Position numbers and translations under genes: made by a program. 35,993 nt of DNA, from the IMG/VR virus record IMGVR_UViG_2585427748_000014, positions 1-35,993 of that record, one strand, 5' to 3'. The stretch is from a virus. Its lineage: Duplodnaviria > Heunggongvirae > Uroviricota > Caudoviricetes. The notes below the pieces were generated by a model, which was not told the DNA's origin, made no database searches, and worked only from the letters and a program-made list of their open reading frames with translations. Numbering within the stretch: position 1 is the first letter of the stretch; every line of letters begins with the position of its first letter. This document shows positions 1-35,582 of the stretch, piece after piece.

Positions 1-366
1 CAGAGCAGAGAACGGTGCTGTCTTTTTCAGTTTGAGTGTGGCGGTGTTATCTGCGTGACCTGGTTCACCAATAGTACCCAGGTTAAGCACACTGACGGCA
101 CGCATATTATCGGCATCGATAAAGCAGCGGGTGCCTTCATCTGCAAGATCTTTAGAATAACGGGTAAAGTCATCGATGCTGGCAGTGGAAAGCGCACCAC
201 GGAAACGGAAGCGATTTAAATTAAATTTTTCCAGATCATGAATGCGGAAATTCTCAGGCAATGCCACAGCATCGGCACCAATCTTACTGATAATTTCATT
301 AACACCCTGAGCAGAAATAAGGGCATGGATTTGATTAATTGCGGTTGCGTCTAAGTTCTGAGACAT
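1..366 (-). CDS. YfdQ-like prophage protein (DUF2303-like), N-terminal part; C-terminus lies beyond the window edge
   Basis: Minus-strand ORF starting at ATG 364-366 ([12 protein letters not shown]...) with GAGGA 6 nt upstream; resembles CPS-53 YfdQ-type proteins from memory. Confidence 0.5.
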
Positions 367-431
367 AATAAGTCCTCACTATATAAAGATATTCAGTGAT
401 GAGATAAATAATCGGTTAATTAAGAACGATA

Positions 432-794
432 TTAATGACCTGCTGCGCGGAGTTTTCCGTCAGGTTCACCGGCAAGAGTCAGTAATTGTCCCTGGTCTTC
501 CTGCAGAATAGTCAGGCGACCACCGCGATTGACATACATCGGCGTTTCGGTGGTGTCTTCTTCGGAAATTTTCCCGCGGTTAGTCGGGCGAACATATGAG
601 AGTTTGTGTTTGATTTTCACACGGTTCTCATCAAATGGTTCGATTTCCAGGTTGAGTGAGACCTTACCTTTGGTTTTCGTGTTCATCACACCGGAAGCGA
701 CTTCACTGAGAACTGCGCCGATTTTGGTTTCAAATACGCCGCCGTCCAGCTCCCCAATAAATGCCTGCACATCAGTACTGCGTTCGCTAGCCAT
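432..794 (-). CDS. YfdP-like prophage protein (about 120 aa)
   Basis: ATG at 792-794 preceded by AGGAG with a 7-nt spacer; the longer ORF-track N-terminal extension looks like non-coding translation. Confidence 0.5.
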   Translation of the reverse strand: MASERSTDVQAFIGELDGGVFETKIGAVLSEVASGVMNTKTKGKVSLNLEIEPFDENRVKIKHKLSYVRPTNRGKISEEDTTETPMYVNRGGRLTILQEDQGQLLTLAGEPDGKLRAAGH

Positions 795-1232
795 TTTTCT
801 GCTCCTAATCATATCGACCCTGCAAGGTCGGTTGGTTTCTCCACAAAACAGAGAAGAACACCTGCGGTGGCAGCCGCCCGGATGGATTGGGTTATGAGCC
901 CGTCGTCCGGTGATGTTCTTCTCTGTTTTGTAAAAAGAGCGGTACCAGCCGGAAGCAAGTGTACAAACTGGTACCGCGAGGACTACACACAGCATAAAGT
1001 TGTGGTGCCGGGTGCCTCCCGGTGCCTGGCGAAAGTTGCACACCAGGCGGGTGGGTATCCACAGAAGGTCGACTGTCAGCCTCAACCTTAACCCGCGTGC
1101 GCTGAGCCGCATTCACCACAACGCTAAGGATTCTCTCTGGTTGAAAATACTTAGCTGTTATGTGCCTGTCTTTTCACCACTTCAGGCTCGGTGGTATCTT
1201 GGTGTTTTCATATAGCCAAGAAGGAAATAGTT

Positions 1233-1424
1233 ATGACCAAAGAAGAAAAAATTCTTTATTTATTCCAACTATCGGTTAAGACTCACACTGCATATCAGAC
1301 TGCTGCCATGACATCAGATAAAAATTACAGTACGTCAGAAAACCCGATAGACGACATAAGCAAGCTTTACGATAAGTTCGAAGCACTACTCGATAAAAAG
1401 TTTGCTGAGGCTGGGCTTGAGTGA
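1233..1424 (+). CDS. Small hypothetical protein (63 aa), A+T-rich
   Basis: ATG at 1233 with AAGGA 7 nt upstream; its 3' end overlaps a convergent small ORF. Confidence 0.3.
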   Translation: MTKEEKILYLFQLSVKTHTAYQTAAMTSDKNYSTSENPIDDISKLYDKFEALLDKKFAEAGLE

Positions 1425-1562
1425 TTGTTGAATAATCGACAAAACCCAACTTAAATTTTCGTCAGTGGGCTCGATGCCATGTGCGGTGAGCTCACTTTTC
1501 AAAACTCCAAGCAATTCAGAGCTGATTTTCAATATATCTGCTTGATTTCTAACTATTCCCAC
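1386..1562 (-). CDS. Small hypothetical protein (about 59 aa from GTG 1562; 68 aa if from ATG 1592), same strand as cI
   Basis: AGGGAGGA sits 5 nt upstream of GTG 1560-1562; N-terminus has basic residues (MTARRPREEK). Confidence 0.3.
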   Translation of the reverse strand: MGIVRNQADILKISSELLGVLKSELTAHGIEPTDENLSWVLSIIQQSLKPSLSKLFIE

Positions 1563-1775
1563 TTTTTCCTCCCTTGGTCTACGCGCGGTCATGTTTTACG
1601 CCCAAACGACTTCACAGTTATTGTTTAAAATCTGGACTTTCATTTCATACACCTGCTTTAACATGAGTGCCTAGTGGCACAACATGACTCAACGAATCAT
1701 CCTGGACTTCATATGCCCCAGGCGGCTACTTCGTGGGCGTCCTGCCTGTTCGTTATCTTTGATATAAAATCTAAC

Positions 1776-1839
1776 TTAACTTAGTTATTATGGCAAGAGA
1801 AAACACCAAACTTTTCTTAGTTCGGTGCCTTAGTTAGAG
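1776..1839. promoter_or_regulatory. OL-like operator cluster: three CTTAGTT motifs (1780-1786, 1816-1822, 1829-1835) just beyond the cI stop
   Basis: Same 7-mer as in the cI-cro intergenic sites, clustered on the other side of cI. Confidence 0.45.
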
Positions 1840-1849
1840 AAGAGAGGTC

Positions 1850-2476
1850 TTAGAGTTCGTATTGAACTCCTTTGACTACACCAATGATAAGGCAATTACC
1901 ATTGATAGGGATGTTGGGATACCGAGGATTTAATGGCACTAAAAACTTTTGAGGGCCATCGATGACTAATTTTTTTACTGTAGCTTCGTTTGTTCCATCA
2001 AGTCGAGCGATGACTATTTTTCCATGACGAGGTTCTGCATCTGGATCTACAATCACTGTTGCGCCTTCTGGTATTGTTGGGAGGCCATTAGGGTTAGTCA
2101 TGGAGTCACCTTTAACCTCTAATGCAAATGAGTTATCACCAATCTTTAATGATGTATCTACCCACTTGTCCACTTCACTAAACACTTCTGCTGCCCTGCA
2201 CTCAGTAAACTGCCCAGCCTGAACCCACGATATTACAGGAACTCTGCGCATGTTTGTGACGAGTTTGCCTTCAAACTCAGCACCATAAAGAATGTAATCT
2301 ATTGACGTATTGAAGAACTTCGCTAATTTCGAAAGTGCCTCCCCACCAGGGGTATTGATGTCTTTCTCCCAGTACCCCACAGCAACGTCGCTTACTCCAC
2401 AAAATTTACCCAATTCTTTCTGGGACGTTCCGGTAACTCTTCTCAGAGCTTTTATACGCTGACCAACCGTTTCCAT
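1850..2476 (-). CDS. cI: Prophage repressor, cI/LexA-like (N-terminal XRE-type HTH plus C-terminal S24 peptidase domain)
   Basis: 208-aa ORF; HTH segment QKELGKFCGVSDVAVGYWEK; C-terminal GDSM...KKLV consistent with a Ser-Lys autocleavage dyad; divergent from the Cro-like gene; no Shine-Dalgarno, consistent with a leaderless message. Confidence 0.9.
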   Translation of the reverse strand: METVGQRIKALRRVTGTSQKELGKFCGVSDVAVGYWEKDINTPGGEALSKLAKFFNTSIDYILYGAEFEGKLVTNMRRVPVISWVQAGQFTECRAAEVFSEVDKWVDTSLKIGDNSFALEVKGDSMTNPNGLPTIPEGATVIVDPDAEPRHGKIVIARLDGTNEATVKKLVIDGPQKFLVPLNPRYPNIPINGNCLIIGVVKGVQYEL

Positions 2477-2498
2477 AGGAGCACCATTTCTTGAATTG

Positions 2499-2562
2499 CT
2501 AAGTAATCTTAGTTTTTATTGACCAAAGATAGATTTGTAATTAGCATCTAATAAAACTTAGT
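2499..2562. promoter_or_regulatory. OR-like operator/promoter region between cI and cro: two 14-bp sites (2499-2512 CTAAGTAATCTTAG; 2548-2561 CTAATAAAACTTAG) and a candidate PR (-35 TTGACC 2519-2524, 17-bp spacer, -10 TAGCAT 2542-2547)
   Basis: Inverted-repeat sites carrying the shared CTTAGTT motif flank a sigma70-like promoter in the divergent intergenic region. Confidence 0.55.
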
Positions 2563-2573
2563 TTGGAGGGCGT

Positions 2574-2774
2574 ATGACAACTGACGATATCGAAAGCTAC
2601 TTCGGCAGTATTGAGAAAGTTGCTGCTTTTTTCGGCATAACAACTGAAGCCGTTTATCAGTGGCGAAACCGTCCGGGCCAGTTAATTCCAAAAGGACGTG
2701 CAGCAGAAGCTGCATATAGAACTTGCGGACGGTTGCCATTTAAACCTGAGCTTTATGAAAAATCTAATGGATAA
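2574..2774 (+). CDS. cro: Cro-like DNA-binding regulator (Cro/YdaS-type HTH)
   Basis: 66-aa ORF divergent from cI; GGAGG 4 nt upstream; HTH-like segment VAAFFGITTEAVYQWRNR. Confidence 0.75.
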   Translation: MTTDDIESYFGSIEKVAAFFGITTEAVYQWRNRPGQLIPKGRAAEAAYRTCGRLPFKPELYEKSNG

Positions 2775-3363
2775 ATCGATTAACAGAAACCACAGAACGA
2801 TGAGGCTAACCGTGGGTAAGCATCACTGGAAAGTAGAAAAACAGCCTGAGTGGTACGTGAAAGCTGTCAGAAAAACTATCGCAGCGTTGCCGGGTGGTTA
2901 CGCTGAAGCAGCTGACTGGCTGGATGTAACAGAAAACGCATTATTTAACCGTCTTCGTGCCGATGGCGATCAGATTTTCCCGCTGGGATGGGCAATGATT
3001 TTGCAACGTGCTGGTGGAACTCACTTCATTGCTGACGCTGTGGCGCAGTCTGCAAATGGCGTCTTTGTGTCTCTTCCTGACGTCGAGGATGTGGACAACG
3101 CCGATATTAACCAGCGCCTGCTGGAAGTCATTGAACAGATTGGCAGTTATTCCAGACAGATTCGTTCGGCAATCGAAGACGGTGTGGTGGAACCGCATGA
3201 GAAGACAGCAATTAACGACGAGCTGTATCTCTCAATTTCGAAGCTGCAGGAGCATGCAGCACTGGTCTACAAAATCTTTTGCATTTCAGAAAGTAATGAC
3301 GCCCGCGAGTGTGCAGCTCCGGGCGCCGTGGCGTGTCGTGACTGTGGAGAAACTAACGCATGA
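2755..3363 (+). CDS. Hypothetical early regulatory protein (possibly YdaT/CII-like); start uncertain (2755, 2767 or 2800)
   Basis: Long ORF immediately after cro; no strong Shine-Dalgarno, so translational coupling is possible. Confidence 0.45.
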
Positions 3364-3698
3364 ACAGTTTAACAACACACTACCGTCGCTCGCAACTGAT
3401 TGCGCTTCCTGTACCGGGTGGAAAAGCGAAGGTGGAGTATTGCTATGCAGTTAATGTACCAGGTGACAGGGAAATTGTAACCCACAGCTTTGCTGAGTGG
3501 GCTGTGGGTGATTTCAACCGGCAGAAGGAGACAGTCCTTTGCGACAAGTTAACCGCTGGTTCAAAGATCACTACGGAGTGCCCGTCAGAGTCATTCGTTG
3601 GGAGCCGGAAACACAACGAGTTATCTACCTCCGCGAAGGCTATGAGCATGAGTGCTTCAGCCCGCTCGAACAGTTTCGTCGTAAATTCAGGGAAATAG
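3360..3698 (+). CDS. Hypothetical protein; its 3' half may be mis-framed (see finding on the alternative frame 3539..3718)
   Basis: ATG overlaps the upstream stop (ATGA); the C-terminal half is Ser-rich and low-complexity, while an overlapping frame encodes a more protein-like sequence. Confidence 0.35.
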
Positions 3699-3707
3699 AG
3701 GTCGGTC

Positions 3708-4649
3708 ATGAGCACTAAATTAACCGGCTATGTATGGGATGGTTGCGCTGCATCAGGCATGAAATTATCCAGCGTGGCAATTATGGCCCGCCTGGCTGAT
3801 TTCAGTAATGACGAAGGTGTGTGCTGGCCATCAATTGAAACTATTGCCCGTCAGATTGGCGCGGGGATGAGTACCGTCAGGACGGCTATCGCACGGCTGG
3901 AAGCAGAAGGCTGGTTAACACGTAAGGCGCGTCGCCAGGGTAACCGCAATGCGTCGAATGTTTATCAGCTTAACGTTGCGAAGCTTCAGGCAGCGGCATT
4001 TTCTCAACTGTCAGATTCTGACCCGTCAAAATCTGACGCATCAAAATCTGACCCGTCAAAATTTGATGCGTCGAAATCTGGCAAAAAAGCGGGTTTTCAC
4101 CCGTCAGAATCTGGCGGGGATCCGTCAGTAAAATCAAAACATGATCCGTCAGATAAAAAACCTTCTCGTCCGGACGCTTCGCAACCGGACACGCAGACGG
4201 ATGAACAGGATTTTTTAACTCGCCATCCTGATGCGGTTGTATTCAGCCCTAAAAAGCGCCAGTGGGGAACGCAGGATGATTTGACCTGCGCACAGTGGCT
4301 CTGGAAAAAAATCATCGCCCTGTACGAGCAAGCCGCCGAATGTGACGGCGAGGTGGTTCGTCCCAAAGAACCGAACTGGACAGCCTGGGCAAACGAAATT
4401 CGCCTGATGTGTGTGCAGGATGGTCGTACTCACAAACAAATCTGCGAGATGTACAGCCGCGTCAGCCGCGATCCGTTCTGGTGCCGTAACGTGCTCAGCC
4501 CGTCGAAGTTGCGGGAAAAATGGGATGAGCTTTCCCTGCGCTTATCACCGTCCGTCAGCACGTACACCGAAAAACGCGAAGACCCGTACTTCAAAGCCAG
4601 TTACGACAACGTGGACTACAGCCAGATCCCGGCAGGATTCAGGGGGTGA
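3708..4649 (+). CDS. Replication initiation protein, O-like (N-terminal wHTH; internal linker encoded by iterons)
   Basis: AGAGG 6 nt upstream of ATG; N-terminal HTH segment; tandem 15-bp repeats inside the gene, as for lambda O/ori. Confidence 0.7.
   Translation: MSTKLTGYVWDGCAASGMKLSSVAIMARLADFSNDEGVCWPSIETIARQIGAGMSTVRTAIARLEAEGWLTRKARRQGNRNASNVYQLNVAKLQAAAFSQLSDSDPSKSDASKSDPSKFDASKSGKKAGFHPSESGGDPSVKSKHDPSDKKPSRPDASQPDTQTDEQDFLTRHPDAVVFSPKKRQWGTQDDLTCAQWLWKKIIALYEQAAECDGEVVRPKEPNWTAWANEIRLMCVQDGRTHKQICEMYSRVSRDPFWCRNVLSPSKLREKWDELSLRLSPSVSTYTEKREDPYFKASYDNVDYSQIPAGFRG
4009..4160. repeat. Iteron array (candidate ori): five tandem 15-bp repeats (consensus about CCGTCAAAATCTGAC, 4009-4082) plus three degenerate copies (4101-4115, 4122-4136, 4146-4160), ending in an A-rich tract
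   Basis: Direct tandem repeats read from the sequence; they lie inside the O-like gene. Confidence 0.75.
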
Positions 4650-4651
4650 TC

Positions 4652-5140
4652 ATGAGTCTTTTGAATGACGTTCAGAAATTCATTGAAGCCCATCCGGGGT
4701 GTACTTCCGGAGACATTGCAGATGCTTTTGCTGGTTACTCACGGCAGCGCGTTCTGCAGTCAGCAAGCAAGTTACGTCAGAGTGGGCGTGTGGCTCACCG
4801 TTGTGAAGGGGATACACGCAGACATTTCCCGCGCCTGACTGAGAGAGCGCAGGAGCCGGAACCACAACCAGTTCGTGAAACCAGACCTGTGCGCAATTTC
4901 TATGTCGGCACTAACGACCCCCGGGTGATTTTGTGCCTGACCCGCCAGGCTGAAGAACTGGAGTCCAGGGGCTTATTCCGTCGAGCTGCAACGGTGTGGA
5001 TGGAGGCATTCCGTGAAAGCCACTCCCAGCCAGAACGAAACAATTTTCTGGCGCATCGTGAGCGGTGCTTACGGAAAAGCAGCAAGCGCGCTGCATCGGG
5101 TGAAGAGTGGTATCTGTCAGGGAATTACGTGGGGGCTTAA
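4652..5140 (+). CDS. PerC-family-like transcriptional regulator (C-terminal PerC/Pch-like motif)
   Basis: AGGGGG 5 nt upstream of ATG 4652; C-terminal motif EELESRGLFRRAATVWMEAF resembles the PerC/Pch signature. Confidence 0.45.
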   Translation: MSLLNDVQKFIEAHPGCTSGDIADAFAGYSRQRVLQSASKLRQSGRVAHRCEGDTRRHFPRLTERAQEPEPQPVRETRPVRNFYVGTNDPRVILCLTRQAEELESRGLFRRAATVWMEAFRESHSQPERNNFLAHRERCLRKSSKRAASGEEWYLSGNYVGA

Positions 5141-5793
5141 TGAGTAATAAATATTGCCAGGCGCTGGTGGAGCTGCGAAACAAACCAGCCCATGAACTGA
5201 AGGAAGTGGGCGATCAGTGGCGCACGCCGGACAACATTTTCTGGGGAATTAACACCCTGTTTGGCCCGTTTGTTCTGGATCTGTTCACTGATGGTGATAA
5301 CGCCAAATGTGCCGCTTATTACACTGCGGAAGACAACGCGCTGGCGCATGACTGGTCTGAACGTCTTGCGGAGCTTAAAGGTGCTGCCTTTGGTAATCCC
5401 CCGTACAGCCGCGCCAGTCAGCATGAGGGGCAATACATCACCGGCATGCGTTACATCATGAAACATGCCAGTGCTATGCGTGATAAAGGCGGGCGCTATG
5501 TTTTCCTGATCAAAGCTGCCACCAGCGAAGTTTGGTGGCCGGAAGATGCAGACCATATTGCTTTTATTCGCGGGCGTATTGGTTTTGAACTGCCAGCCTG
5601 GTTTATCCCGAAGGATGAGAAGCAGGTTCCGACAGGAGCTTTCTTCGCTGGTGCTATTGCTGTTTTCGACAAGACCTGGAAGGGACCGGCAATCAGCTAC
5701 ATCGGGCGCGATGAACTTGAGGCATGTGGTGAGGCCTTTCTGGCGCAGGTTCGCCAGCAGGCAGAAAAACTGGTCAGGGAGATGGTGGCATGA
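5140..5793 (+). CDS. Phage DNA N-6-adenine methyltransferase (Dam-like)
   Basis: NPPY motif (GNPPYS); start overlaps the upstream stop (TAATG); GGGGG Shine-Dalgarno. Confidence 0.8.
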   Translation: MSNKYCQALVELRNKPAHELKEVGDQWRTPDNIFWGINTLFGPFVLDLFTDGDNAKCAAYYTAEDNALAHDWSERLAELKGAAFGNPPYSRASQHEGQYITGMRYIMKHASAMRDKGGRYVFLIKAATSEVWWPEDADHIAFIRGRIGFELPAWFIPKDEKQVPTGAFFAGAIAVFDKTWKGPAISYIGRDELEACGEAFLAQVRQQAEKLVREMVA

Positions 5794-6116
5794 CGACGTT
5801 AACTCAATGCCAGCAGCAGGTGCTGGATATGCTGATTTCTTATCAGAAAGAACGTGGCTTCCCGCCAACCAATCAGGAGGTGGCAACCATGCTGGGATAC
5901 CGTTCAGTGAATGCAGCGGTAGAACATCTTCGCGCACTGGAGAAAAAAGGCGTCATCACGATAAAGCGTGGCGTGGCCCGGGGCATCACGCTTCATACCG
6001 CGGTGAAGGACGACGACAGCGAGGCGGTCGGGATTATCCGCTCACTGCTTGTCGGTGAGGAAAACGCCAGGCTGCGTGCAGCCCACTGGTTACATGAGAG
6101 GGGCCTGAAAGTATGA
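5790..6116 (+). CDS. LexA DNA-binding-domain-like protein (no peptidase domain)
   Basis: 108 aa resembling the LexA N-terminal wHTH (QQQVLDMLISYQKERGFPPTNQEVATMLGYRSVNAAVEHLRALEKKGVI); ATGA overlap with Dam. Confidence 0.6.
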   Translation: MTTLTQCQQQVLDMLISYQKERGFPPTNQEVATMLGYRSVNAAVEHLRALEKKGVITIKRGVARGITLHTAVKDDDSEAVGIIRSLLVGEENARLRAAHWLHERGLKV

Positions 6117-6502
6117 AGCTGATCCTGCCTTTCCCGCCCAGCGTGAACACGTACTGGCGACACCCCAACAAAGGGGCGTTTGCAGGTAAGAGCCTGATAA
6201 GCGCGGCGGGGCGCAAATTCCAGAGCGCGGCGTGTGCAGCAATAGTTGAGCAGTTACGTCGTCTGCCAAAACCAACGTCGGCACCTGCTTCAGTGGAGAT
6301 CGTGTTGTTTCCTCCGGATAACCGGATCCGCGATCTGGACAACTATAACAAGGCGCTGTTTGACGCCCTGACCCACGCGGGTGTGTGGGAAGACGACAGT
6401 CAGGTGAAAAGAATGCTGGTTGAGTGGGGATCGGTTATCCCGGGAGGGAAGGTCGAGATCACTATCAGTAAGTACGAGAAAACGGCGGGTGCAGCCGCCT
6501 GA
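6113..6502 (+). CDS. rusA: RusA Holliday-junction resolvase
   Basis: 129 aa; motifs PPSVNTYWR and RDLDNYNKALFDALTHAGVWEDDSQV match the RusA family. Confidence 0.85.
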   Translation: MKLILPFPPSVNTYWRHPNKGAFAGKSLISAAGRKFQSAACAAIVEQLRRLPKPTSAPASVEIVLFPPDNRIRDLDNYNKALFDALTHAGVWEDDSQVKRMLVEWGSVIPGGKVEITISKYEKTAGAAA

Positions 6503-6521
6503 TTAAGAGGAGAAACGAAGT

Positions 6522-7331
6522 ATGAATAATCTGATGGTCATTGATGGTATTGAAGTTCGTCGTGATGCTTATGGGCGTTACAGCCTGAACGATCTGCACA
6601 GGGCAGCCGGGGGAGAACAAAAAAACCGCCCGAAATACTGGCTCTCCAATAAGCAAACCTGTGAATTGATTGAACAACTTTTCACCGAGGGTGGAATTCC
6701 GCCTCTGGAACAAAATCAACCAGTTAGCGTCATTAATGGCGGAAATAACCAGGGGACGTATGTCTGCAAAGAACTGGTGTATGCCTATGCAATGTGGATC
6801 AGCCCGTCATTCCATCTGAAGGTGATCCGTACTTTCGATATGGTAACCAGCGCACCGGAAAAATTATCCGGGCAGGCTGCTGACAAGATGCAGGCTGGAG
6901 TGATTCTGCTGGACTTTATGCGCAGGGAGTTAAACCTGTCTAACTCTTCAGTGCTTGGGGCCTGTCAGAAACTCCAGGAGGCTGTTGGCTTACCGAATCT
7001 GGCACCGCGCTATGCCATTGATGCTCCTGCTGACGCGCCTGATGGCTCAAGCCGCCCCACGCTGTCACTGAGTGCACTGCTGAAGCAGTATGGTATCCGC
7101 CTGACAGCTAATCAGGCATATCATCAGATGGTGAAGCTGGGGATCGTCGAGCAGCGCGAACGATACAGCCGTACCGCGATTAACAACATCAAAAAATTCT
7201 GGTCGCTGACGGCGAAAGGCTGCATGTTCGGCAAGAACATCACCAGTCCTGCAAATCCGCGCGAGACGCAGCCGCATTTCTTCGAATCCCGATTCCCTGA
7301 GCTGTTAAAGCTGCTCGATACCGTTCATTGA
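6522..7331 (+). CDS. KilA-N domain protein (antirepressor-like)
   Basis: GAGGAG Shine-Dalgarno; N-terminal KilA-N-like segment (VIDGIEVRRDAYGRYSLNDLHRAAG). Confidence 0.7.
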   Translation: MNNLMVIDGIEVRRDAYGRYSLNDLHRAAGGEQKNRPKYWLSNKQTCELIEQLFTEGGIPPLEQNQPVSVINGGNNQGTYVCKELVYAYAMWISPSFHLKVIRTFDMVTSAPEKLSGQAADKMQAGVILLDFMRRELNLSNSSVLGACQKLQEAVGLPNLAPRYAIDAPADAPDGSSRPTLSLSALLKQYGIRLTANQAYHQMVKLGIVEQRERYSRTAINNIKKFWSLTAKGCMFGKNITSPANPRETQPHFFESRFPELLKLLDTVH

Positions 7332-7332
7332 G

Positions 7333-8328
7333 GTGACCGTGAGAGCACTACTGACCCCTGAAATTGCCCCGCGTATGGGGATCGTATTGTTCAGGCCAGG
7401 TTCAGAGCTGATGCCCCTGTTTATGCAGGGGCGTGTCCTGCTGGAGCCTGAGCCGGAACGTTATTCATCTTTCGCCAGTGGTGCCGTTCCGGCGGCATCA
7501 CAACCGCTGGCGGATGATCCTGCCGTTCGGGCCGTGTTCCGCAATGAGGCAGTGATCCGTCGTGCTGGTGGCGTGGAATGTCTTGAAAGCTGGTTACTTC
7601 GTGAAAAAGGCTGCCAGTGGCCTCATTCCGACTGGCACAGCGAGAACATGACCACAATGCGACACGCGCCGGGCGCAATCCGTCTGTGCTGGCACTGCGA
7701 TAACCAGCTGCGCGATCAGTTCACGGAACGGCTGGAATCAATGGCAACGGATAACTGTGTCCGGTGGGTGTTATCTGTCGTGCGTCGGGATCTCGGTTTT
7801 GATGACAGTCACGTTGTGACAATGCCGGAACTGTGCTGGTGGCTGATTCGTAATGATCTGGCGGATGCCTTACCGGAAAGTGCAGCCCGTAAGGCACTGA
7901 GATTACCGAAGCCTGTTGTGCCGTCTGTTACCCGGGAAAGTGACCTTGTGCCTTCGGTTCCTGCCACCAGCATCATCCAGGATAAGGCGAAAAAGGTGCT
8001 GGCGCTGAAAGTGGATCCGGAGTCGCCGGAGTCTTTTATGTTACGCCCAAAACGTCGCCGCTGGGTTAATGAAAAGTACACGCGCTGGGTTAAGACACAG
8101 CCGTGTGCATGTTGTGGAAAGCCTGCTGATGATCCCCACCACCTGATAGGCCACGGTCAGGGGGGAATGGGTACAAAAGCGCATGACCTCTTCGTGCTGC
8201 CTTTGTGCAGAAAGCATCACGACGAGCTGCATGCGGGTACCGTGGCATTTGAAGAGATGTATGGCTCCCAGTTGGAGCTGATATTTCGTTTTATCGATCG
8301 TGCGCTGGCAATAGGCGTACTGGCGTAA
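7333..8328 (+). CDS. DUF968-family protein (Ref/HNH-like C-terminal Cys/His cluster); start uncertain (GTG 7333 or 7339, or ATG 7375)
   Basis: C-terminal CACCGK...HHLIGHGQGGMGTKAHD...CRKHHDELH motif typical of DUF968 Nin-region proteins. Confidence 0.65.
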   Translation: MTVRALLTPEIAPRMGIVLFRPGSELMPLFMQGRVLLEPEPERYSSFASGAVPAASQPLADDPAVRAVFRNEAVIRRAGGVECLESWLLREKGCQWPHSDWHSENMTTMRHAPGAIRLCWHCDNQLRDQFTERLESMATDNCVRWVLSVVRRDLGFDDSHVVTMPELCWWLIRNDLADALPESAARKALRLPKPVVPSVTRESDLVPSVPATSIIQDKAKKVLALKVDPESPESFMLRPKRRRWVNEKYTRWVKTQPCACCGKPADDPHHLIGHGQGGMGTKAHDLFVLPLCRKHHDELHAGTVAFEEMYGSQLELIFRFIDRALAIGVLA

Positions 8329-8341
8329 GTGGAGAACGAGC

Positions 8342-9094
8342 ATGAACCTTGAAGCCTTACCAAAATATTACTCCCCAAAATCTCCAAAATTGAGTGATGA
8401 CGCACCGGCGACAGGCTCGGGTGGTTTAACAATTACAGATGTGATGGCTGCGCAGGGGATGGTGCAGTCGAAAGCACCGCTTGGGTTTTCCTTATTCCTG
8501 GCAAAAGTTGGTGTTCAGGATCCTCAGTTTGCGATTGAAGGTCTGCTCAATTACGCGATGGCACTGGATAACCCGACATTGAACAAATTGAGTGAAGAAA
8601 CCCGGCTACAGATCATTCCTTACCTTGTGAATTTTGCCTTTGCTGATTATTCCAGGTCTGCGGCAAGTAAGGCTCGCTGTGAGCATTGTGCTGGTACTGG
8701 ATTTCATAATGTATTGCGCGAAGTGGTGAAACACTCCAGAAGCGGGGAGTCTGTTATCAAGGAAGAGTGGGTGAAGGAACTATGTCAGCATTGTCATGGT
8801 AAGGGAGAAGTCAGCACAGCGTGCAGAGGGTGTAAGGGTAAAGGTATTGTCCTGGATGAAAAAAGAACCCGGCTTCATGGCACGCCTGTTTATAAGATTT
8901 GTGGGCGTTGCAATGGAAACCGGTTTAGCCGTTTACCAACCACACTGGCGCGGCTTCATGTCCAGAAGCTGGTACCAGACCTGACGGATTATCAGTGGTA
9001 CAAAGGATATGCAGATGTCATTGATAAACTGGTTACAAAGTGCTGGCAGGAGGAAGCTTACGCTGAAGCACAATTGAGAAGGGTGACGAGATAA
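8342..9094 (+). CDS. Q: Late-gene antitermination protein Q
   Basis: 250 aa with CxxC zinc-binding pairs (CEHCAGTG, CQHCHGKG, CRGCKGKG, CGRC); positioned before the lysis genes. Confidence 0.8.
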   Translation: MNLEALPKYYSPKSPKLSDDAPATGSGGLTITDVMAAQGMVQSKAPLGFSLFLAKVGVQDPQFAIEGLLNYAMALDNPTLNKLSEETRLQIIPYLVNFAFADYSRSAASKARCEHCAGTGFHNVLREVVKHSRSGESVIKEEWVKELCQHCHGKGEVSTACRGCKGKGIVLDEKRTRLHGTPVYKICGRCNGNRFSRLPTTLARLHVQKLVPDLTDYQWYKGYADVIDKLVTKCWQEEAYAEAQLRRVTR

Positions 9095-9180
9095 GCGATT
9101 TTCGCCGAAGATAACGACATAATGCTTGTGTTTCTCAAAAAATATGGATAAGATTTTCTCAACGATGGGGCTTGTGTATC

Positions 9181-9226
9181 TATCGTTGAACGATTTTTAC
9201 GACCTCGCTATTGCGAGGTTTTTTTA
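9181..9226 (+). terminator. Tandem rho-independent terminators downstream of Q (tR'-like): hairpin 9203-9218 CCTCGCTATTGCGAGG plus T-run, preceded by a smaller hairpin plus T-run
   Basis: GC-rich stems followed by U tracts on the + strand. Confidence 0.7.
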
Positions 9227-9262
9227 TGGTTTTTTTCTATTCAATCTACATCAAAATCAATG

Positions 9263-9271
9263 TGTTATAAT
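9263..9271 (+). promoter_or_regulatory. Extended -10 promoter (TGtTATAAT) upstream of the moron gene at 9309
   Basis: Perfect TATAAT at 9266-9271 with TG at 9263-9264. Confidence 0.5.
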
Positions 9272-9308
9272 GTTTTCTGTAAAACAACATTAAAAACAGG
9301 AGAACATT

Positions 9309-9775: not shown

Positions 9776-10582
9776 GTGGAATCGAAAGTGTCATATTTTT
9801 ACAGAAGCAAGAATATTTCAGGTGTTTCTATAAATGAAGATAGCTTGATTAGCTTAAGCACGGCAATTGTCGAACGCTGCGTTAAAATGAATGAGCAAGC
9901 TCAAAAGGAAAGTAGGGAAGTTTGTGCCCAATGTGTTTTTTTTATTTTGTTCGATGGTAAGGGATATAAAGTTGATTCTATCGGTGAGCTTGTGAAATAC
10001 TTTAGACAGGCCACTAGGATTGATCAAATAATTTTTACTATTGAAACTTATCAAAGTCGACAGTCTAACAGGATGAATGGATCTTGGATGGAGCTACGAA
10101 TTGATGAGAGGAATTCAAATAGCAGCACAATGATTGTAGCATCGGAAGATAATGAGTGGGTTGACTCGTTATGGATTACGATTCAGGATTTACTTAACAA
10201 GTGCAAAAATAAATTTAGATTTTTTAGAACAGCTTGGACTATGTTAAGTATCCAGATTTCAGGTGTGACAGTTGGCTTTTTGCTTAGCTTATGGACAGCC
10301 TCAAAACTGGCGCCAAAACTATCAATCGATGGTGCATTTGCTTTATCATTTATTTGTATCTTTATTTTGTTTTCGAACTTATGGAGCTTTGCTATTCCAT
10401 TAATAATTAAGCTTATCGACTTTTTGTTTCCTAGTGTTAAGTTTGTTATTAATGGTAAAAATTACTTTCACTGGAGTGTCCAGGCTATAATTGGAGCGAT
10501 TGCCAGTGCGGTTATATTATATTTTATTAGCTCCATGTTGCTTTTTGCATTAGAAATGTTAAATAGCATCATTAAGAAATAG
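9776..10582 (+). CDS. Hypothetical membrane protein: soluble N-terminal domain plus three C-terminal transmembrane helices (A+T-rich moron); start uncertain (GTG 9776 or a downstream start)
   Basis: Three hydrophobic segments in the C-terminal third; A+T-rich; flanked by related hairpins. Confidence 0.5.
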   Translation: MESKVSYFYRSKNISGVSINEDSLISLSTAIVERCVKMNEQAQKESREVCAQCVFFILFDGKGYKVDSIGELVKYFRQATRIDQIIFTIETYQSRQSNRMNGSWMELRIDERNSNSSTMIVASEDNEWVDSLWITIQDLLNKCKNKFRFFRTAWTMLSIQISGVTVGFLLSLWTASKLAPKLSIDGAFALSFICIFILFSNLWSFAIPLIIKLIDFLFPSVKFVINGKNYFHWSVQAIIGAIASAVILYFISSMLLFALEMLNSIIKK

Positions 10583-10615: not shown

Positions 10616-10640
10616 GGCTGCCAAATGGTGGCCTTTTTTA
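10616..10640 (+). terminator. Rho-independent terminator after the moron membrane gene (GGCTGCCAAATGGTGGCC plus T-run)
   Basis: 7-bp stem (including G-U pairs) followed by TTTTTT. Confidence 0.6.
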
Positions 10641-10690
10641 TTCCTCTCATTTCTATTTCTGAGAGGACTCACTGCAATAAGAGGTGGCTA

Positions 10691-11077
10691 ATGTCCGATC
10701 CGATTTCCGGCACAGGGTTAGCTGGTGGAGCCCTAACGGGCGCTAGTATTTATGGACTGCTGACCGGAACTGATTACGGCGTTGTATTTGGCGCATTTGC
10801 AGGGGCTGTATTCTATATAGCAACAGCAGCAGATCTGAGTGCATCGCGTCGACTGGCATATTTTATCGTGTCATATATTGCTGGGATCCTTTGCTCTGGG
10901 TTGGTTGGCTCCAAGCTGGCAAACTTGACCGGATACAGTGATAAACCTCTGGATGCTATTGGTGCCGTAATCGTCTCTGCTTTAGCCGTTAAAATCCTGA
11001 CGTTCCTGAATAATCAGGATATCGGCTCCCTGGGGGGGCTCATAACGCGCCGGGGAGGTTCAGGTGGAGCTAAATGA
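10691..11077 (+). CDS. Putative holin (multi-TM small membrane protein)
   Basis: AAGAGG Shine-Dalgarno; Gly/Ala-rich hydrophobic segments; first gene of the lysis cassette after Q. Confidence 0.6.
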   Translation: MSDPISGTGLAGGALTGASIYGLLTGTDYGVVFGAFAGAVFYIATAADLSASRRLAYFIVSYIAGILCSGLVGSKLANLTGYSDKPLDAIGAVIVSALAVKILTFLNNQDIGSLGGLITRRGGSGGAK

Positions 11078-25517: not shown

Positions 25518-26048
25518 ATGAAAGGCTATATCACAGCAAGTGTAATTCTTGGAGCAGCGGCTATTTTTTCATCTCTCATAATCTCTGGCAACATCTCCTT
25601 TAAAGATGAACATATTATTCAGTTATCTGGAGGAGCCATAAAACTTGGTGATGTTTATAAAGAAAATAAATTGATAAGTGCAAAGATTATTTTTCCAGAT
25701 AATCAGGGTGAACAGATTCTTGTTGTCGACGGCAATCCTGAAAACTTTAAGGAGGATTTTCAGGAGAAATTAAATAAAGTAATAAAAACTTTAAATGCGT
25801 CAAAGAAAAAAGATGAAGAGAAAGTTAGCCTGGATAATTTAAGTGTTATTGAAGAGTCTAAACTAGAGCTCGTTTCTGCGGTGCGTTACTCTGCTCAGTA
25901 TGTTCCTATGTTTACTCTGACGCTGGACAAAAAAGAAATTACCATGCCTAAAAATACGGTAATATTTCCATTTGCCAGCGATGAAACAGCTAAGTATTTA
26001 AATGAACAACAGCAAAAGTATAAAGATTCGTTGTTTCTGACTCGCTAA
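25518..26048 (+). CDS. Hypothetical signal-anchored or secreted protein (176 aa), A+T-rich moron inside the tail module
   Basis: N-terminal hydrophobic signal/anchor; Lys/Glu-rich body; A+T-rich; own promoter-like element and terminator. Confidence 0.55.
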   Translation: MKGYITASVILGAAAIFSSLIISGNISFKDEHIIQLSGGAIKLGDVYKENKLISAKIIFPDNQGEQILVVDGNPENFKEDFQEKLNKVIKTLNASKKKDEEKVSLDNLSVIEESKLELVSAVRYSAQYVPMFTLTLDKKEITMPKNTVIFPFASDETAKYLNEQQQKYKDSLFLTR

Positions 26049-31110: not shown

Positions 31111-32211
31111 ATGCATCGTATAGACACGAAAACCGCGCAGAAGGATAAGTTCGGCGCGGGTAAGAACGGTTTTACCCGTGGTAACCCCCAGACCGGCACG
31201 CCTGCCACCGATCTGGATGATGACTACTTTGACATGTTGCAGGAAGAACTCTGCAGCGTGGTGGAGGCATCCGGTGCCAGCCTGGAGAAGGGGCGGCACG
31301 ATCAGCTTCTTACCGCGCTTCGTGCGCTGCTGTTAAGCCGCAAGAATCCGTTTGGCGATATCAAATCGGATGGCACTGTGCAAACGGCTCTCGAAAACCT
31401 GGGAATGACAGACATTCTGAATGATAAACAGGATAAAAATGATAATCTGACATCATTGTCGAGCTTAACAGGAATACCGGATGGGCTGGCATTTTTTACA
31501 GGTGCTGGAACAATGGATATGACAGCGCTGACTCAAAATGGTAGGGAAATTTTAAGTAAAAAAAACGTATCGGAAACTCTACAATATTTAACACTTGGTG
31601 ATGGAACAGGAAGGCTTTTGGGGGTTCAGGTATTTGGATCATCTGGGACTTATCACAAATCACCTGGTGTAACGAAAATTATAGTGGAAGCCGTTGGCGG
31701 TGGTGGTGCCAGTGGCAATTTATCAGCAACAGCCTCAAATAACTGTGGTGTAAGTGCTGCCGGTTCCAACGGGGCATATGCTAAAGCATTTTTTTATCAG
31801 TCTATACCTGAATCCGTGCAAGTAACTATTGGAAGCGGTGGTGTAGCAGGAACAGGACCAGGAGGCTCTGGAGGTGACGGCGGGAATACAAGCTTTGGTG
31901 ATTTGCTTGTATGCCCGGGAGGAAGGGGATCAACTCAAGTTCAGCAGGTACCTCCATTTTCAGGGGGAAGTGCAACAGAAGCACCAATTCCTACAGGGCA
32001 AGGGATTCTGTTCCATTCAGTTTCACGATCAAATTTATGTGGGGCACTTGGACTTGGTGATGATCAGGCGATTGGCGTTGAAAGTATAACCACTACTATG
32101 CTTGGGACATACGGTATTGGCGGGACAGGGAAATACAATAAGGCGTCATCAGGCCCAGCGACAGGAAATAATGGAAATCAGGGATATATTCTTGTGTGGG
32201 AGTATCAGTAA
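31111..32211 (+). CDS. Tail fibre protein (conserved N-terminus, divergent Gly-rich A+T-rich C-terminal domain)
   Basis: N-terminus [47 protein letters not shown] typical of fibre N-termini; composition changes at about 31380. Confidence 0.8.
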
Positions 32212-32390
32212 TGAGCGATATTTATGCAGTCGTACAAAATGGTGTCGTTACAAATCTTGTTGTATGGGATGGTAAGTCAGAGTTTAAGCCAGAAAAAGCG
32301 GATATAGTTAAATGTGTTGGAGATGTTGGTATTGGCTGGTCATATGACGGTAAAAAATTCATCAAGCCTGAAGATAAAACCGCGCAATAG
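32211..32390 (+). CDS. Small hypothetical protein downstream of the fibre (possible fibre chaperone)
   Basis: TAATG overlap with the fibre stop; GGGAG upstream; A+T-rich like the fibre C-terminus. Confidence 0.35.
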   Translation: MSDIYAVVQNGVVTNLVVWDGKSEFKPEKADIVKCVGDVGIGWSYDGKKFIKPEDKTAQ

Positions 32391-32410
32391 CGCGGTTTTA
32401 TTTATTTTAC
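32376..32410. terminator. Bidirectional rho-independent terminator between convergent genes (ACCGCGC-AATA-GCGCGGT flanked by A- and T-runs)
   Basis: Perfect 7-bp GC stem with an A tract upstream and a T tract downstream. Confidence 0.75.
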
Positions 32411-33421
32411 TGCTAAAATTCGTTTTCTTAGCATCAGCTCTAAAGGCTCCTCAACTAATTTATAAAGTATGATTGAGACTATGGTTATTATAACAAGGAG
32501 CGCTATTAAATAGAGTGGTCCGGGGTTATGTCCAAAGATTTTAAAGCAAAATAATATAATGGGTTGATGAATTAAATAAAAAATAAATGATGATTTCCCT
32601 AATAGCTCTAGGGTTTTTGAACTGAGGATAGTATGAATGACTCCATTTCTTAGATAGATGCATGAAGTAAAGAATATTACCATGGGGAGTAAATAATATA
32701 ACGAATAACGTAGACTATTATTTATGTTGTTGCTATAATATATAGCTATTAGCAGAGGTAATAGTGAAATTAAAAACAAAAGGCTGTCGACTGTCTGCTG
32801 TCGGCTGTTTTTCCAGCAAGCGTAAATAATCATGCCGCAAATAAATTCTACCAAGCGGCTTACTGGGAATATATAATATAACCAGTGATTAAGTTCTTCT
32901 GTTTGTATAATTTTTAAAAAATATATAGTTAATAGTAGAGTTATAATTGATATTGCAGTGATTACTTTCTTTGTAATTGATGTATAAATCAACGGAATAA
33001 ACATTAAATAAAAAAACAGCTCATCAGACAAAGACCATGATACACCATTTAATGAGAAGTAGTAATCCTCCTTTGGTATCCAACTTTGCATTAATAAAAT
33101 ATTTGTTAAGGTTTTTGAAAAATCAAAGTTCTTTAAGTGAATGGTTAGTAAAATAAATGGCATGGCTAATAATAGATGCATTGGAACAATTCTTGCCAAT
33201 CTTAAAAGAATAAACTGTCTTTTACTTGTTACTTCATTTTTTAGCTTGTCTTCATATGAATATGAAAGAATGAAGCCAGATAAAATAAAGAAAAAGGAAA
33301 CGCCAATAAATCCCTGGGAAAACATTTCTTTTACAAAAACACCAAAATAGTCTGTATTTAAATGGCATAAATAAACCATTAATGCAGCTATAAATCTGAG
33401 TCCTGTTAAGTGGCGAAGCAT
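32402..33421 (-). CDS. Acyltransferase family 3 membrane protein (O-antigen acetyltransferase-like conversion gene)
   Basis: ATG at 33421 with AGAGG Shine-Dalgarno; N-terminal motif RHLTGLRFIAALMVYLCH typical of acyltransferase-3; about 10 predicted TM helices; A+T-rich. Confidence 0.8.
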   Translation of the reverse strand: MLRHLTGLRFIAALMVYLCHLNTDYFGVFVKEMFSQGFIGVSFFFILSGFILSYSYEDKLKNEVTSKRQFILLRLARIVPMHLLLAMPFILLTIHLKNFDFSKTLTNILLMQSWIPKEDYYFSLNGVSWSLSDELFFYLMFIPLIYTSITKKVITAISIITLLLTIYFLKIIQTEELNHWLYYIFPVSRLVEFICGMIIYACWKNSRQQTVDSLLFLISLLPLLIAIYYSNNINNSLRYSLYYLLPMVIFFTSCIYLRNGVIHTILSSKTLELLGKSSFIFYLIHQPIILFCFKIFGHNPGPLYLIALLVIITIVSIILYKLVEEPLELMLRKRILAVK

Positions 33422-34156
33422 CAATAACCTCTTGTTATGAAGATAAAGCAATTCAAAAGAGGCATTTTATGACTGTAGGGGATTGGTGTCTATATGAATG
33501 AGTAATCTGGTTTTTAAAATCTTCTTTAATTACAAAATAAACCTTTCTTAGGCTATAGATTTGTGGCTGTAACACTGTGTGTCCACGACATTGAGACATC
33601 CTTCCGCTTTGCTATAGATGTGGAATTCAGGATCAAGCGATATCGGACTCATCCTCAGCACCACCCGGTTAATCTGGATAACGGGAGAAGGGAAGCGCTG
33701 CCAGAAGATGATGATGGTTACAGTTCTGCACTGGCTATTCTGCACTGGCTATATTCGTGGTGATCACTTACATAATTAATGACGCCAGGAATACGGAGTT
33801 TGATGATTGCCTGGTGATGTGAGAAAAAACTCATACACACAAAGCTTTGCACTGGATTGCAAGGCTTTGTGCTATTCGATAGCACGAGTTTGAATGAAAA
33901 TCAGCCGTTATCGATTTTACGTATTTTTGTATGAGAGGATTTTTACCTCCTCCCACCGATCCTCCATAACTTTACGACACTGTCTCTAGGACTGCTATGT
34001 GCCAAGAGCGGAATTTTCTAATATTATGCTGCATTCGTTTAAGGGGAGCAGATCAGCTAACGACTCCTACGTCCTGGGGAAAGGTCACATATGCTAAACA
34101 GCAGCTCAGCAAAGAGAAGAGCGAATTTGGTAACGGGAAACCGTTATGATATGAAT

Positions 34157-34185
34157 AAGGCTCCCAATGGGAGCCTTATTTTTTG
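34157..34185. terminator. Hairpin plus T-run terminator (AAGGCTCCC-AAT-GGGAGCCTT, then TTTTTT), possibly bidirectional
   Basis: Perfect stem followed by U tract on the + strand; lies just 3' of the minus-strand small gene. Confidence 0.6.
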
Positions 34186-35038: not shown

Positions 35039-35410
35039 TTCATGTCATCCTTTATCTTTTGTCCCACAGCAATTATATCGTTCAAGTGTGAAAGTAGGCG
35101 AGTTATTCTGACCTACGCCTCTCGCTATACGTGGTTTTAGAGGGCTGACATGACTGTTCCCAGCTGATTGCCACACGGCATTGTTCGCAAGATTTATGTC
35201 GACTCAATTATGAACGTCTGCTGATCGCTCATAACAGGCATTCACTACATTTATCTTCATTGGCTATGCAAGTCGTAATACAAGTTGGGACAAAACTGAG
35301 ACACATAAGGCCTCACAATGGCTTGCAAGGCTTTACATGTTTTGATGTGATGGGACGTGTGAGCGCAGTGTTGATGGGGTAATGCTTTGAATTAGAAACG
35401 GATTCTTATA

Positions 35411-35456
35411 ATTCGTAATGCGAAGGTCGTAGGTTCGACTCCTATTATCGGCACCA
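35411..35456 (+). other. attR core: 3' fragment of a tRNA-Thr gene (anticodon loop through CCA), not a complete tRNA
   Basis: ATTCGTAATGCGAAGGTCGTAGGTTCGACTCCTATTATCGGCACCA contains a T-arm (GGTTCGACTCC), acceptor 3' strand and CCA; the 5' half of the tRNA is absent. Confidence 0.75.
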
Positions 35457-35582
35457 TTAAAATCAAAGAGTTACCCCATATTTAAATACACCACGTTTCC
35501 TCCTGTGCCGTATTTGTGCCATTGTAACCTTGGCAATTCATCAAAATACTGTTCTGACATCAGGCAGTGCAGGTGCAGACAT

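Follow-up and report, generated by a model that had tools for sequence, protein, structure and literature searches.

A putative O128 O-antigen O-acetyltransferase gene that shares an exchangeable cassette with a tail-fibre tip in the serotype-conversion slot of an SfV-family prophage

The prophage described here carries, convergent with its tail fibre gene, an intact gene for a stand-alone acyltransferase-3 (AT3) protein which probably acts as an O-acetyltransferase of the O128 O-antigen, serving lysogenic conversion and receptor masking. The whole stretch of DNA analysed, referred to below as the window, is 35,993 nucleotides long and corresponds to the IMG/VR virus record IMGVR_UViG_2585427748_000014 (Caudoviricetes). 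An O-antigen-modifying role had been proposed for the gene in an earlier note made from the letters of the window; this reading is supported by the present comparison of sequences, predicted structures and genomes, and the restriction of the gene to serogroup O128 adds independent support to it.

The early, lysis, head and tail genes of the prophage share approximately 97% DNA identity with the Shigella flexneri phages SfV, SfII, SfI and SfIV, and the element is integrated at thrW. Homology to the attP arm of SfV and SfII surrounds the right att core (35286-35474), and past this core lie the host genes yagP (a LysR fragment) and paoD. The thrW att core followed by these host genes confirms attR. 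Homology to SfV ends at position 31400, about 96 codons into the fibre gene, and picks up again at 35286 in the attP arm. Since the segment between these points replaces the gtrV-gtrB-gtrA genes of SfV, the AT3 gene occupies the serotype-conversion slot of this phage family, and it is transcribed towards the fibre, like gtr in SfV. The earlier note had described this as the place where serotype-converting phages carry their O-antigen modification genes, and the description holds, as the positions of gtr in SfV and of oacD in SfII match and the geometry in Sf6 is alike. Its placement of the gene between the fibre and attR needs a qualification: attR is confirmed, but AT3 is not adjacent to it, because about 2 kb of other cargo (the UmuD-like fragment, a 57-aa ORF and a 190-aa ORF) intervenes. 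By its position, AT3 would be a lysogenic-conversion cargo gene (a "moron") of an SfV-family prophage, lying in a temperate-phage cargo slot beside a receptor-binding gene and an att site, with transcription that is predicted to be independent of the late genes.

Table 1. Coordinates of the cargo region and of other features in the window (+ and - denote the strand).
Feature	Position	Strand	Description
268-aa ORF	9776..10582	+	island of 36-39% GC
176-aa ORF	25518..26048	+	dip to 41% GC
Tail fibre gene	31111..32211	+	366 aa; N-terminal ~96 aa SfV orf21-like; C-terminal Gly_rich_2 domain
Mobile cassette	31336..33882		2.5 kb; fibre from codon 76, 59-aa ORF, AT3 gene, UmuD-like fragment
Variable cargo segment	31401..35285		3.9 kb; replaces SfV orf21 C-terminus, orf22 (tail-fibre assembly) and gtrV-gtrB-gtrA
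59-aa ORF	32211..32390	+	start overlaps the fibre stop (TAATG; translational coupling); PHROG 14370 of unknown function
Bidirectional intrinsic terminator	32372..32403	both	common to the fibre operon and the AT3 gene
AT3 gene	32402..33421	-	stand-alone; 339 aa; 29.8% GC; intact
Shine-Dalgarno sequence AAGAGG	33428..33433	-	6-nt spacer to the AT3 ATG at 33421; read from the sequence
Promoter-like site TAGACA-17-TAAAAT	33464..33492	-	10/12 consensus positions; ~42 nt upstream of the AT3 ATG
UmuD/S24-peptidase C-terminal fragment	33563..33763	+	pseudogene; inside the cassette
GC-rich hairpin	34154..34180		perfect; beside the 190-aa and 57-aa ORFs
Cargo ORFs of 190 aa and 57 aa	34202..35038	-	190-aa ORF: PHROG 4350, function unknown
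attR core	35411..35456	+	46-bp 3' part of tRNA-Thr thrW; SfV/P22-type att core

The longest frame at the locus in the ORF list runs from a TTG (32402-33451, minus strand; 349 aa). The start was taken as the downstream ATG, which is preceded by a Shine-Dalgarno sequence and gives a 1020-nt coding sequence; RefSeq calls the identical sequence WP_000943925.1, "acyltransferase family protein". A bidirectional terminator shared by the convergent fibre-side and AT3 genes had been claimed before, and this proved correct. A perfect stem-loop (ACCGCGC-AATA-GCGCGGT), with an A-run on one side and a T-run on the other, separates the end of the 59-aa ORF (32390) from the AT3 stop codon (32402-32404). It folds on both strands, at -20.5 kcal/mol on the plus strand (z -6.8) and -18.9 on the minus strand (z -4.6), and none of the shuffles folds equally well. 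A hairpin between two convergent stops with U-runs in both directions is therefore a shared bidirectional terminator. With its own promoter-like site and this terminator as insulation from late transcription, AT3 would be expected to be expressed in the lysogen. The promoter-like site is a consensus match, in an AT-rich region that has fewer such sites than shuffled sequence, which counts against the O128-acetylase reading. The GC content of the gene (GC3 28%) lies far below the 54.8% of the structural genes of the prophage (the prophage as a whole is at about 55%). Phase-variation signals of the kind present at Salmonella gtr and oafB were sought in the gene and its upstream region, where there is no GATC and a single A7 run.

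The cargo segment and the rest of the window contain other low-GC or unassigned genes. The 190-aa and 57-aa ORFs gave no Pfam, NCBIfam or PADLOC match; they are present in the cassette carriers KSC1031, E41 and L016, and absent in TW10590 and LHM10-1. The 268-aa ORF stands between antiterminator Q (8342-9094) and holin (10625-11077), a classical late-promoter cargo slot, and has no Pfam or PADLOC match. The 176-aa ORF, between the tape-measure and DNA-circularisation genes, likewise has no Pfam or PADLOC match and is annotated as hypothetical in SfV-like relatives.

The AT3 gene appears to travel with the tip of the fibre as one exchangeable cassette. The left joint of this cassette lies at codon 76 of the fibre gene, in a conserved ten-residue motif, and the cassette is more than 99% identical across six genomic contexts, which are spread over four or five sites in the chromosome. 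It is found in an SfV-like phage at thrW (KSC1031 and the present window), in an SfV-like phage beside bioA-ybhB (LHM10-1, CP52E), in myoviruses with a different baseplate, of the DUF2612/Wedge1 type, at argW (TW10590, EH08-18-36), in a phage of the DUF2612 type adjoining a thrW-type att site and a second integrase element (E41), and in a rearranged prophage near pinE-pphA (strain 300709). Citrobacter keeps the same three genes adjacent to each other, and there the three have diverged as a set, with identities of 65% for the C-terminus of the fibre, 63% for the small ORF and 83% for AT3. The UmuD-like fragment is also conserved, at about 85%, beside the Citrobacter ortholog, and thus marks an older context of the cassette. 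The C-terminal part of the fibre is presumed to bind the receptor, and the 59-aa ORF stands at the position expected for a fibre chaperone. RefSeq labels the fibre "StfP, incomplete" in several genomes (e.g., L001, L029 and L032), where only the first ~99 codons are annotated and the remainder is unannotated; since the 366 codons are uninterrupted, the label is an artefact of annotation and the fibre gene is whole.

The AT3 protein matches Pfam Acyl_transf_3 (PF01757) with an E-value of 2.2e-30 and 106.3 bits, against a cut-off of 31, and the match is nearly full length (profile positions 4-325 of 326). It also matches PHROG 3333, "O-acetyltransferase", at 6e-51, while NCBIfam and PADLOC returned no match for it or its neighbours. 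Conservation was assessed in an alignment of 33 homologues with 32-83% identity. The R-X10-H motif of helix 1 is present, with R9 and H20 invariant in all 34 sequences; in the same alignment the RXXR motif of helix 3 (R74-L-A-R77) has an invariant R74 and an R77 that is at least 90% conserved. Both motifs are essential in OafB, OafA, Oac and OacB (PMC9833829; PMC12423673). An AlphaFold model built on this alignment (pLDDT 89.4, pTM 0.89) has about ten long helices and shows the core ten-transmembrane-helix fold of the AT3/TmAT superfamily; HGSNAT and GWT1 are its only strong matches among solved structures. The earlier description of the product as an acyltransferase-3 protein of roughly ten transmembrane segments is thus borne out by both the profile match and the model. 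There is no SGNH or other domain and no further Pfam match, and the chain ends after helix 10. The protein is therefore predicted to be a stand-alone AT3 enzyme of the Oac/OacB/WecH type.

Searching Oac/OafA-family proteins for relatives, a check the earlier note had suggested, confirmed membership of the AT3 family through PF01757 and the motifs, and found no ortholog of a characterised enzyme; in particular, comparison with Oac and OacD revealed no orthology to a characterised O-antigen acetylase, a point that weighs against the O128-acetylase reading. Identity with OacD was rejected on sequence (BLASTP E 0.16), as was identity with NeaT (E 0.004 over 56 aa, covering the N-terminal motif only). 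In a search of 5.8 billion proteins, an identical E. coli sequence was followed by an 83% identical protein of Citrobacter portucalensis, after which matches fall to 45% or less in assorted Proteobacteria. No relative was found in the GTDB species-representative genomes that were scanned, and the matches in IMG/VR are near-identical prophage copies only. Judged by sequence, the protein represents an AT3 lineage separate from Oac, OacB, OacC and OacD. One homologue, with 37% identity, is encoded in Morganella, where its gene closes a wzx/wzy O-antigen cluster.

The host distribution provides the link to a particular O-antigen. The AT3 gene is carried by seven of 5426 complete E. coli genomes, the O128-specific wzy-wzx segment is found in 23, and all seven carriers fall among these 23 (hypergeometric p 9e-18; p about 1e-12 when the carriers are counted conservatively as five independent acquisitions). 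KSC1031 has the O128 O-antigen cluster, and CP52E has been typed as O128:H12 (PMC10060365). Among public assemblies at large, about 1000 encode the identical protein. Carriers occur in both allele groups of the O128 wzy-wzx segment (at least 99.8%, and 99.4-99.5%) and in at least two sequence types, so clonal hitch-hiking does not explain the pattern. The remaining 16 of the 23 O128 genomes have no AT3 gene; consequently, the O128 antigen as such does not require it. O128 strains without AT3 include AW1.7 and 90-9281. It is also unlikely to define O128ab as opposed to O128ac, given carriers in both allele groups, whose assignment to the two subtypes is inferred from a single labelled strain.

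The fibre tip has a similar distribution. Together with the 59-aa ORF (31400-32369) it is found in 12 of the 5426 genomes, ten of which are O128; the other two, the O111:H2 strain 12A and FDAARGOS_1059, both lack AT3. The host range conferred by the tip could therefore contribute to the O128 association, and part of the restriction of AT3 to one O-antigen type may come from the fibre, a share that is not fully separable from the specificity of the enzyme. This again counts against the O128-acetylase reading, since the tip alone could produce the restriction. Enzyme specificity is nevertheless also favoured, firstly because the LHM10-1/CP52E pair combines a 99.8% identical AT3 with a fibre tip that is only 84.5% identical and is still O128, and secondly because the fibre tip occurs in O111 genomes that lack AT3.

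The same observations bear on the main alternative, namely that AT3 modifies a different glycan of the envelope (enterobacterial common antigen, LPS core, peptidoglycan, osmoregulated glucans, colanic acid or capsule), in which case it would be a fitness or immune-evasion factor like NeaT and the O128 link would reflect the host range of the fibre tip. We regard this as unlikely, though it deserves serious weight. AT3-only proteins have many acceptors (PMC9558356), the fibre tip by itself is enriched in O128, and none of the characterised O-antigen acetylases is a near relative. NeaT (c0970, in a P2-like prophage of CFT073) offers a precedent: it shares the signature, PF01757, a GC content of about 30%, rarity in E. 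coli and a location behind the tail-fibre assembly gene of its prophage, in the reverse orientation. Its effects are on virulence and aggregation, with no O-antigen role reported (PMC3573123). However, its similarity to the present protein is marginal, confined to the 56-aa match given above, and it has no known serogroup link. The slot used by AT3 is the one that holds gtr or oacD in other members of its phage family, the behaviour of the LHM10-1/CP52E pair and of the O111 genomes does not follow the fibre tip, and the Morganella homologue lies inside an O-antigen cluster. These points favour the O128 O-antigen as the acceptor.

Variation in O-acetylation is on record for O128. According to a 2026 preprint, O128 strains do not all carry equally many O-acetyl groups: GTC 14291, for instance, has two, on a hexose, and GTC 13255 has one. 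This difference tracks serological reactivity, and the preprint gives no genetic basis for it. The O128 cluster of KSC1031 encodes a CatB-related hexapeptide-type O-acetyltransferase beside wzx (L027:17974-18531). This enzyme could account for the O-acetyl groups independently of the prophage, and its presence is a point against the O128-acetylase reading; alternatively, it could supply one acetyl group and AT3 the second. In the O128 strains WS4437A-1 and AW1.7 (O128ac:H12), a GDSL/SGNH esterase gene stands in the place of AT3 behind the same fibre tip and small ORF, the fibre C-terminal domain and small ORF being 97-99% identical to the window at the nucleotide level. The esterase gene runs in the direction of the fibre gene, and its product lacks a signal peptide; the frame is intact in WS4437A-1 (L033:7298-7894; 198 aa, with GDS and DGTH motifs) and split in AW1.7 (L031:7347-7942; 83 + 114 aa). 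The product may remove O-acetyl groups from this same receptor, and an esterase in the AT3 slot suggests that acetylation of the receptor is contested. It is tempting to speculate that the cassette is a portable O128 unit that binds the receptor and then masks it, that it is the genetic cause of the O-acetyl and serological heterogeneity of O128, and that the esterase is a counter-move, but this wider proposal is put forward tentatively and is less likely than not. If it is true, O-acetylation of O128 would be contested in an arms race between phages and between phage and host.

By analogy with AT3 proteins that have been studied, the enzyme would take acetyl-CoA at the cytoplasmic face of the membrane, move its acyl group along a pore whose lining includes R9, H20, R74 and R77, and O-acetylate a sugar exposed to the periplasm. 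This acceptor would most likely be the O128 repeat unit (Fuc, Gal, GalNAc). The fibre would recognise the O128 surface and AT3 would then mask this receptor. As with Oac for Sf6, masking would be expected to exclude related phages with the same fibre, and it would alter the antigen seen by antibodies. We infer the acetyl group, the O128 acceptor, the expression in the lysogen and the superinfection exclusion from these parallels.

It is improbable that AT3 transfers another acyl group, such as succinyl or a longer chain, or that it requires a periplasmic partner such as an SGNH protein in place of acting as a lone O-acetylase. Some family members do transfer succinyl groups (PMC12423673), the way in which AT3-only proteins finish the transfer without SGNH is an open question (PMC9558356), and an SGNH/GDSL esterase sits in the same cargo slot of related prophages. 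On the other side, the AT3-only enzymes Oac, OacB and WecH acetylate without a known partner (PMC9833829; PMC9558356), and the cargo segment of the window contains no SGNH gene.

Every copy of AT3 that was examined is full length with an intact frame. Of the seven copies in complete genomes, six are identical to one another and one carries the substitution G7E. Comparison with the Citrobacter ortholog gives a dS of 0.70 and a dN of 0.095 (dN/dS 0.14), with all motif residues retained, and the gene is still intact in the rearranged prophage of strain 300709 and in the Citrobacter prophage remnant. Sequence divergence of this kind points to purifying selection. The prospect that an alignment would expose the gene as a pseudogene, which the earlier note had raised, is excluded by the frame, the motifs and the dN/dS value. 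AT-rich foreign genes are often silenced. It is nonetheless very improbable that AT3 is a silent or decaying passenger, unexpressed or non-functional, for although it is as poor in GC as DNA silenced by H-NS typically is, its promoter is a consensus match of a kind more frequent in shuffles, and a UmuD-like pseudogene adjoins it, the frame is kept in every copy examined, even in rearranged or remnant prophages, all catalytic motifs are retained, and dN/dS is low.

Serogroup O128 is classically associated with enterotoxigenic, enteropathogenic and Shiga-toxin-producing E. coli, and O-typing, as well as O-antigen vaccines and diagnostics, assumes one structure per serogroup. If the proposed function is correct, an O-acetyl group would be added in about a third of O128 genomes, which would explain differences in antiserum reactivity and in glycotypes seen by mass spectrometry, and AT3 would affect which phages infect O128 strains. 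More broadly, the SfV-type serotype-conversion slot is employed beyond Shigella flexneri, here by an enzyme of another lineage, and a modifying gene and a fibre tip can be inherited as a single exchangeable unit. In a literature search, no paper was found that links O128 to a prophage acyltransferase, and none that mentions WP_000943925.

Several known systems resemble the present one in part. One of them comes from the same phage family: SfII, which matches 46-52% of the two halves of the window at 97-98% nucleotide identity. Its OacD is an AT3 protein of 349 aa that 6-O-acetylates GlcNAc of the S. flexneri O-antigen; it has the same Pfam domain, and its gene lies in the equivalent slot behind the fibre genes, in reverse orientation to them and with a 3' terminator. 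However, it has no detectable pairwise similarity to the present protein, SfII retains gtrA-gtrB-gtrII whereas the present prophage has no gtr genes, and the host antigen is the S. flexneri backbone rather than O128. The exact positional counterpart of AT3 is the GtrA-GtrB-GtrV set of SfV, a 97% identical phage, which lies between the fibre genes and attP. Its role is likewise periplasmic modification of the O-antigen, but by glucosylation with three proteins of unrelated families, where AT3 would acylate with one.

Oac (OacA) of Sf6, the model for receptor masking and superinfection immunity, is also a stand-alone AT3 protein with ten transmembrane helices, convergent with the tailspike gene across a terminator and with a promoter of its own. 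Its similarity to the present protein is limited to 28% identity over the N-terminal 155 aa (E 1e-4), and Sf6 differs in being a P22-like podovirus at argW whose Oac acts on rhamnose. The closest phage homologue, gp49 of Escherichia phage TL-2011b (O103:H25 host), is 36% identical in an end-to-end alignment (E 1e-58), and its gene comes after one for a large tail protein; it differs in being uncharacterised, in lying on the same strand as its neighbours, and in its phage type and host serogroup. OafA and OafB of Salmonella and OatA share the AT3 membrane domain, its motifs and the proposed acetyl-CoA pore mechanism, but they continue into an 11th helix and an SGNH domain in the periplasm, whereas the present protein stops at residue 339. 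AT3 acetylases of the O-antigen that are carried by phages are well known, among them Oac, OacB-D and the Oac of PhiV10 (PMC9558356), and SfII oacD belongs to the present phage family and slot; what is new here is the distinct AT3 lineage, its association with O128, and the cassette that combines the enzyme with the fibre tip.
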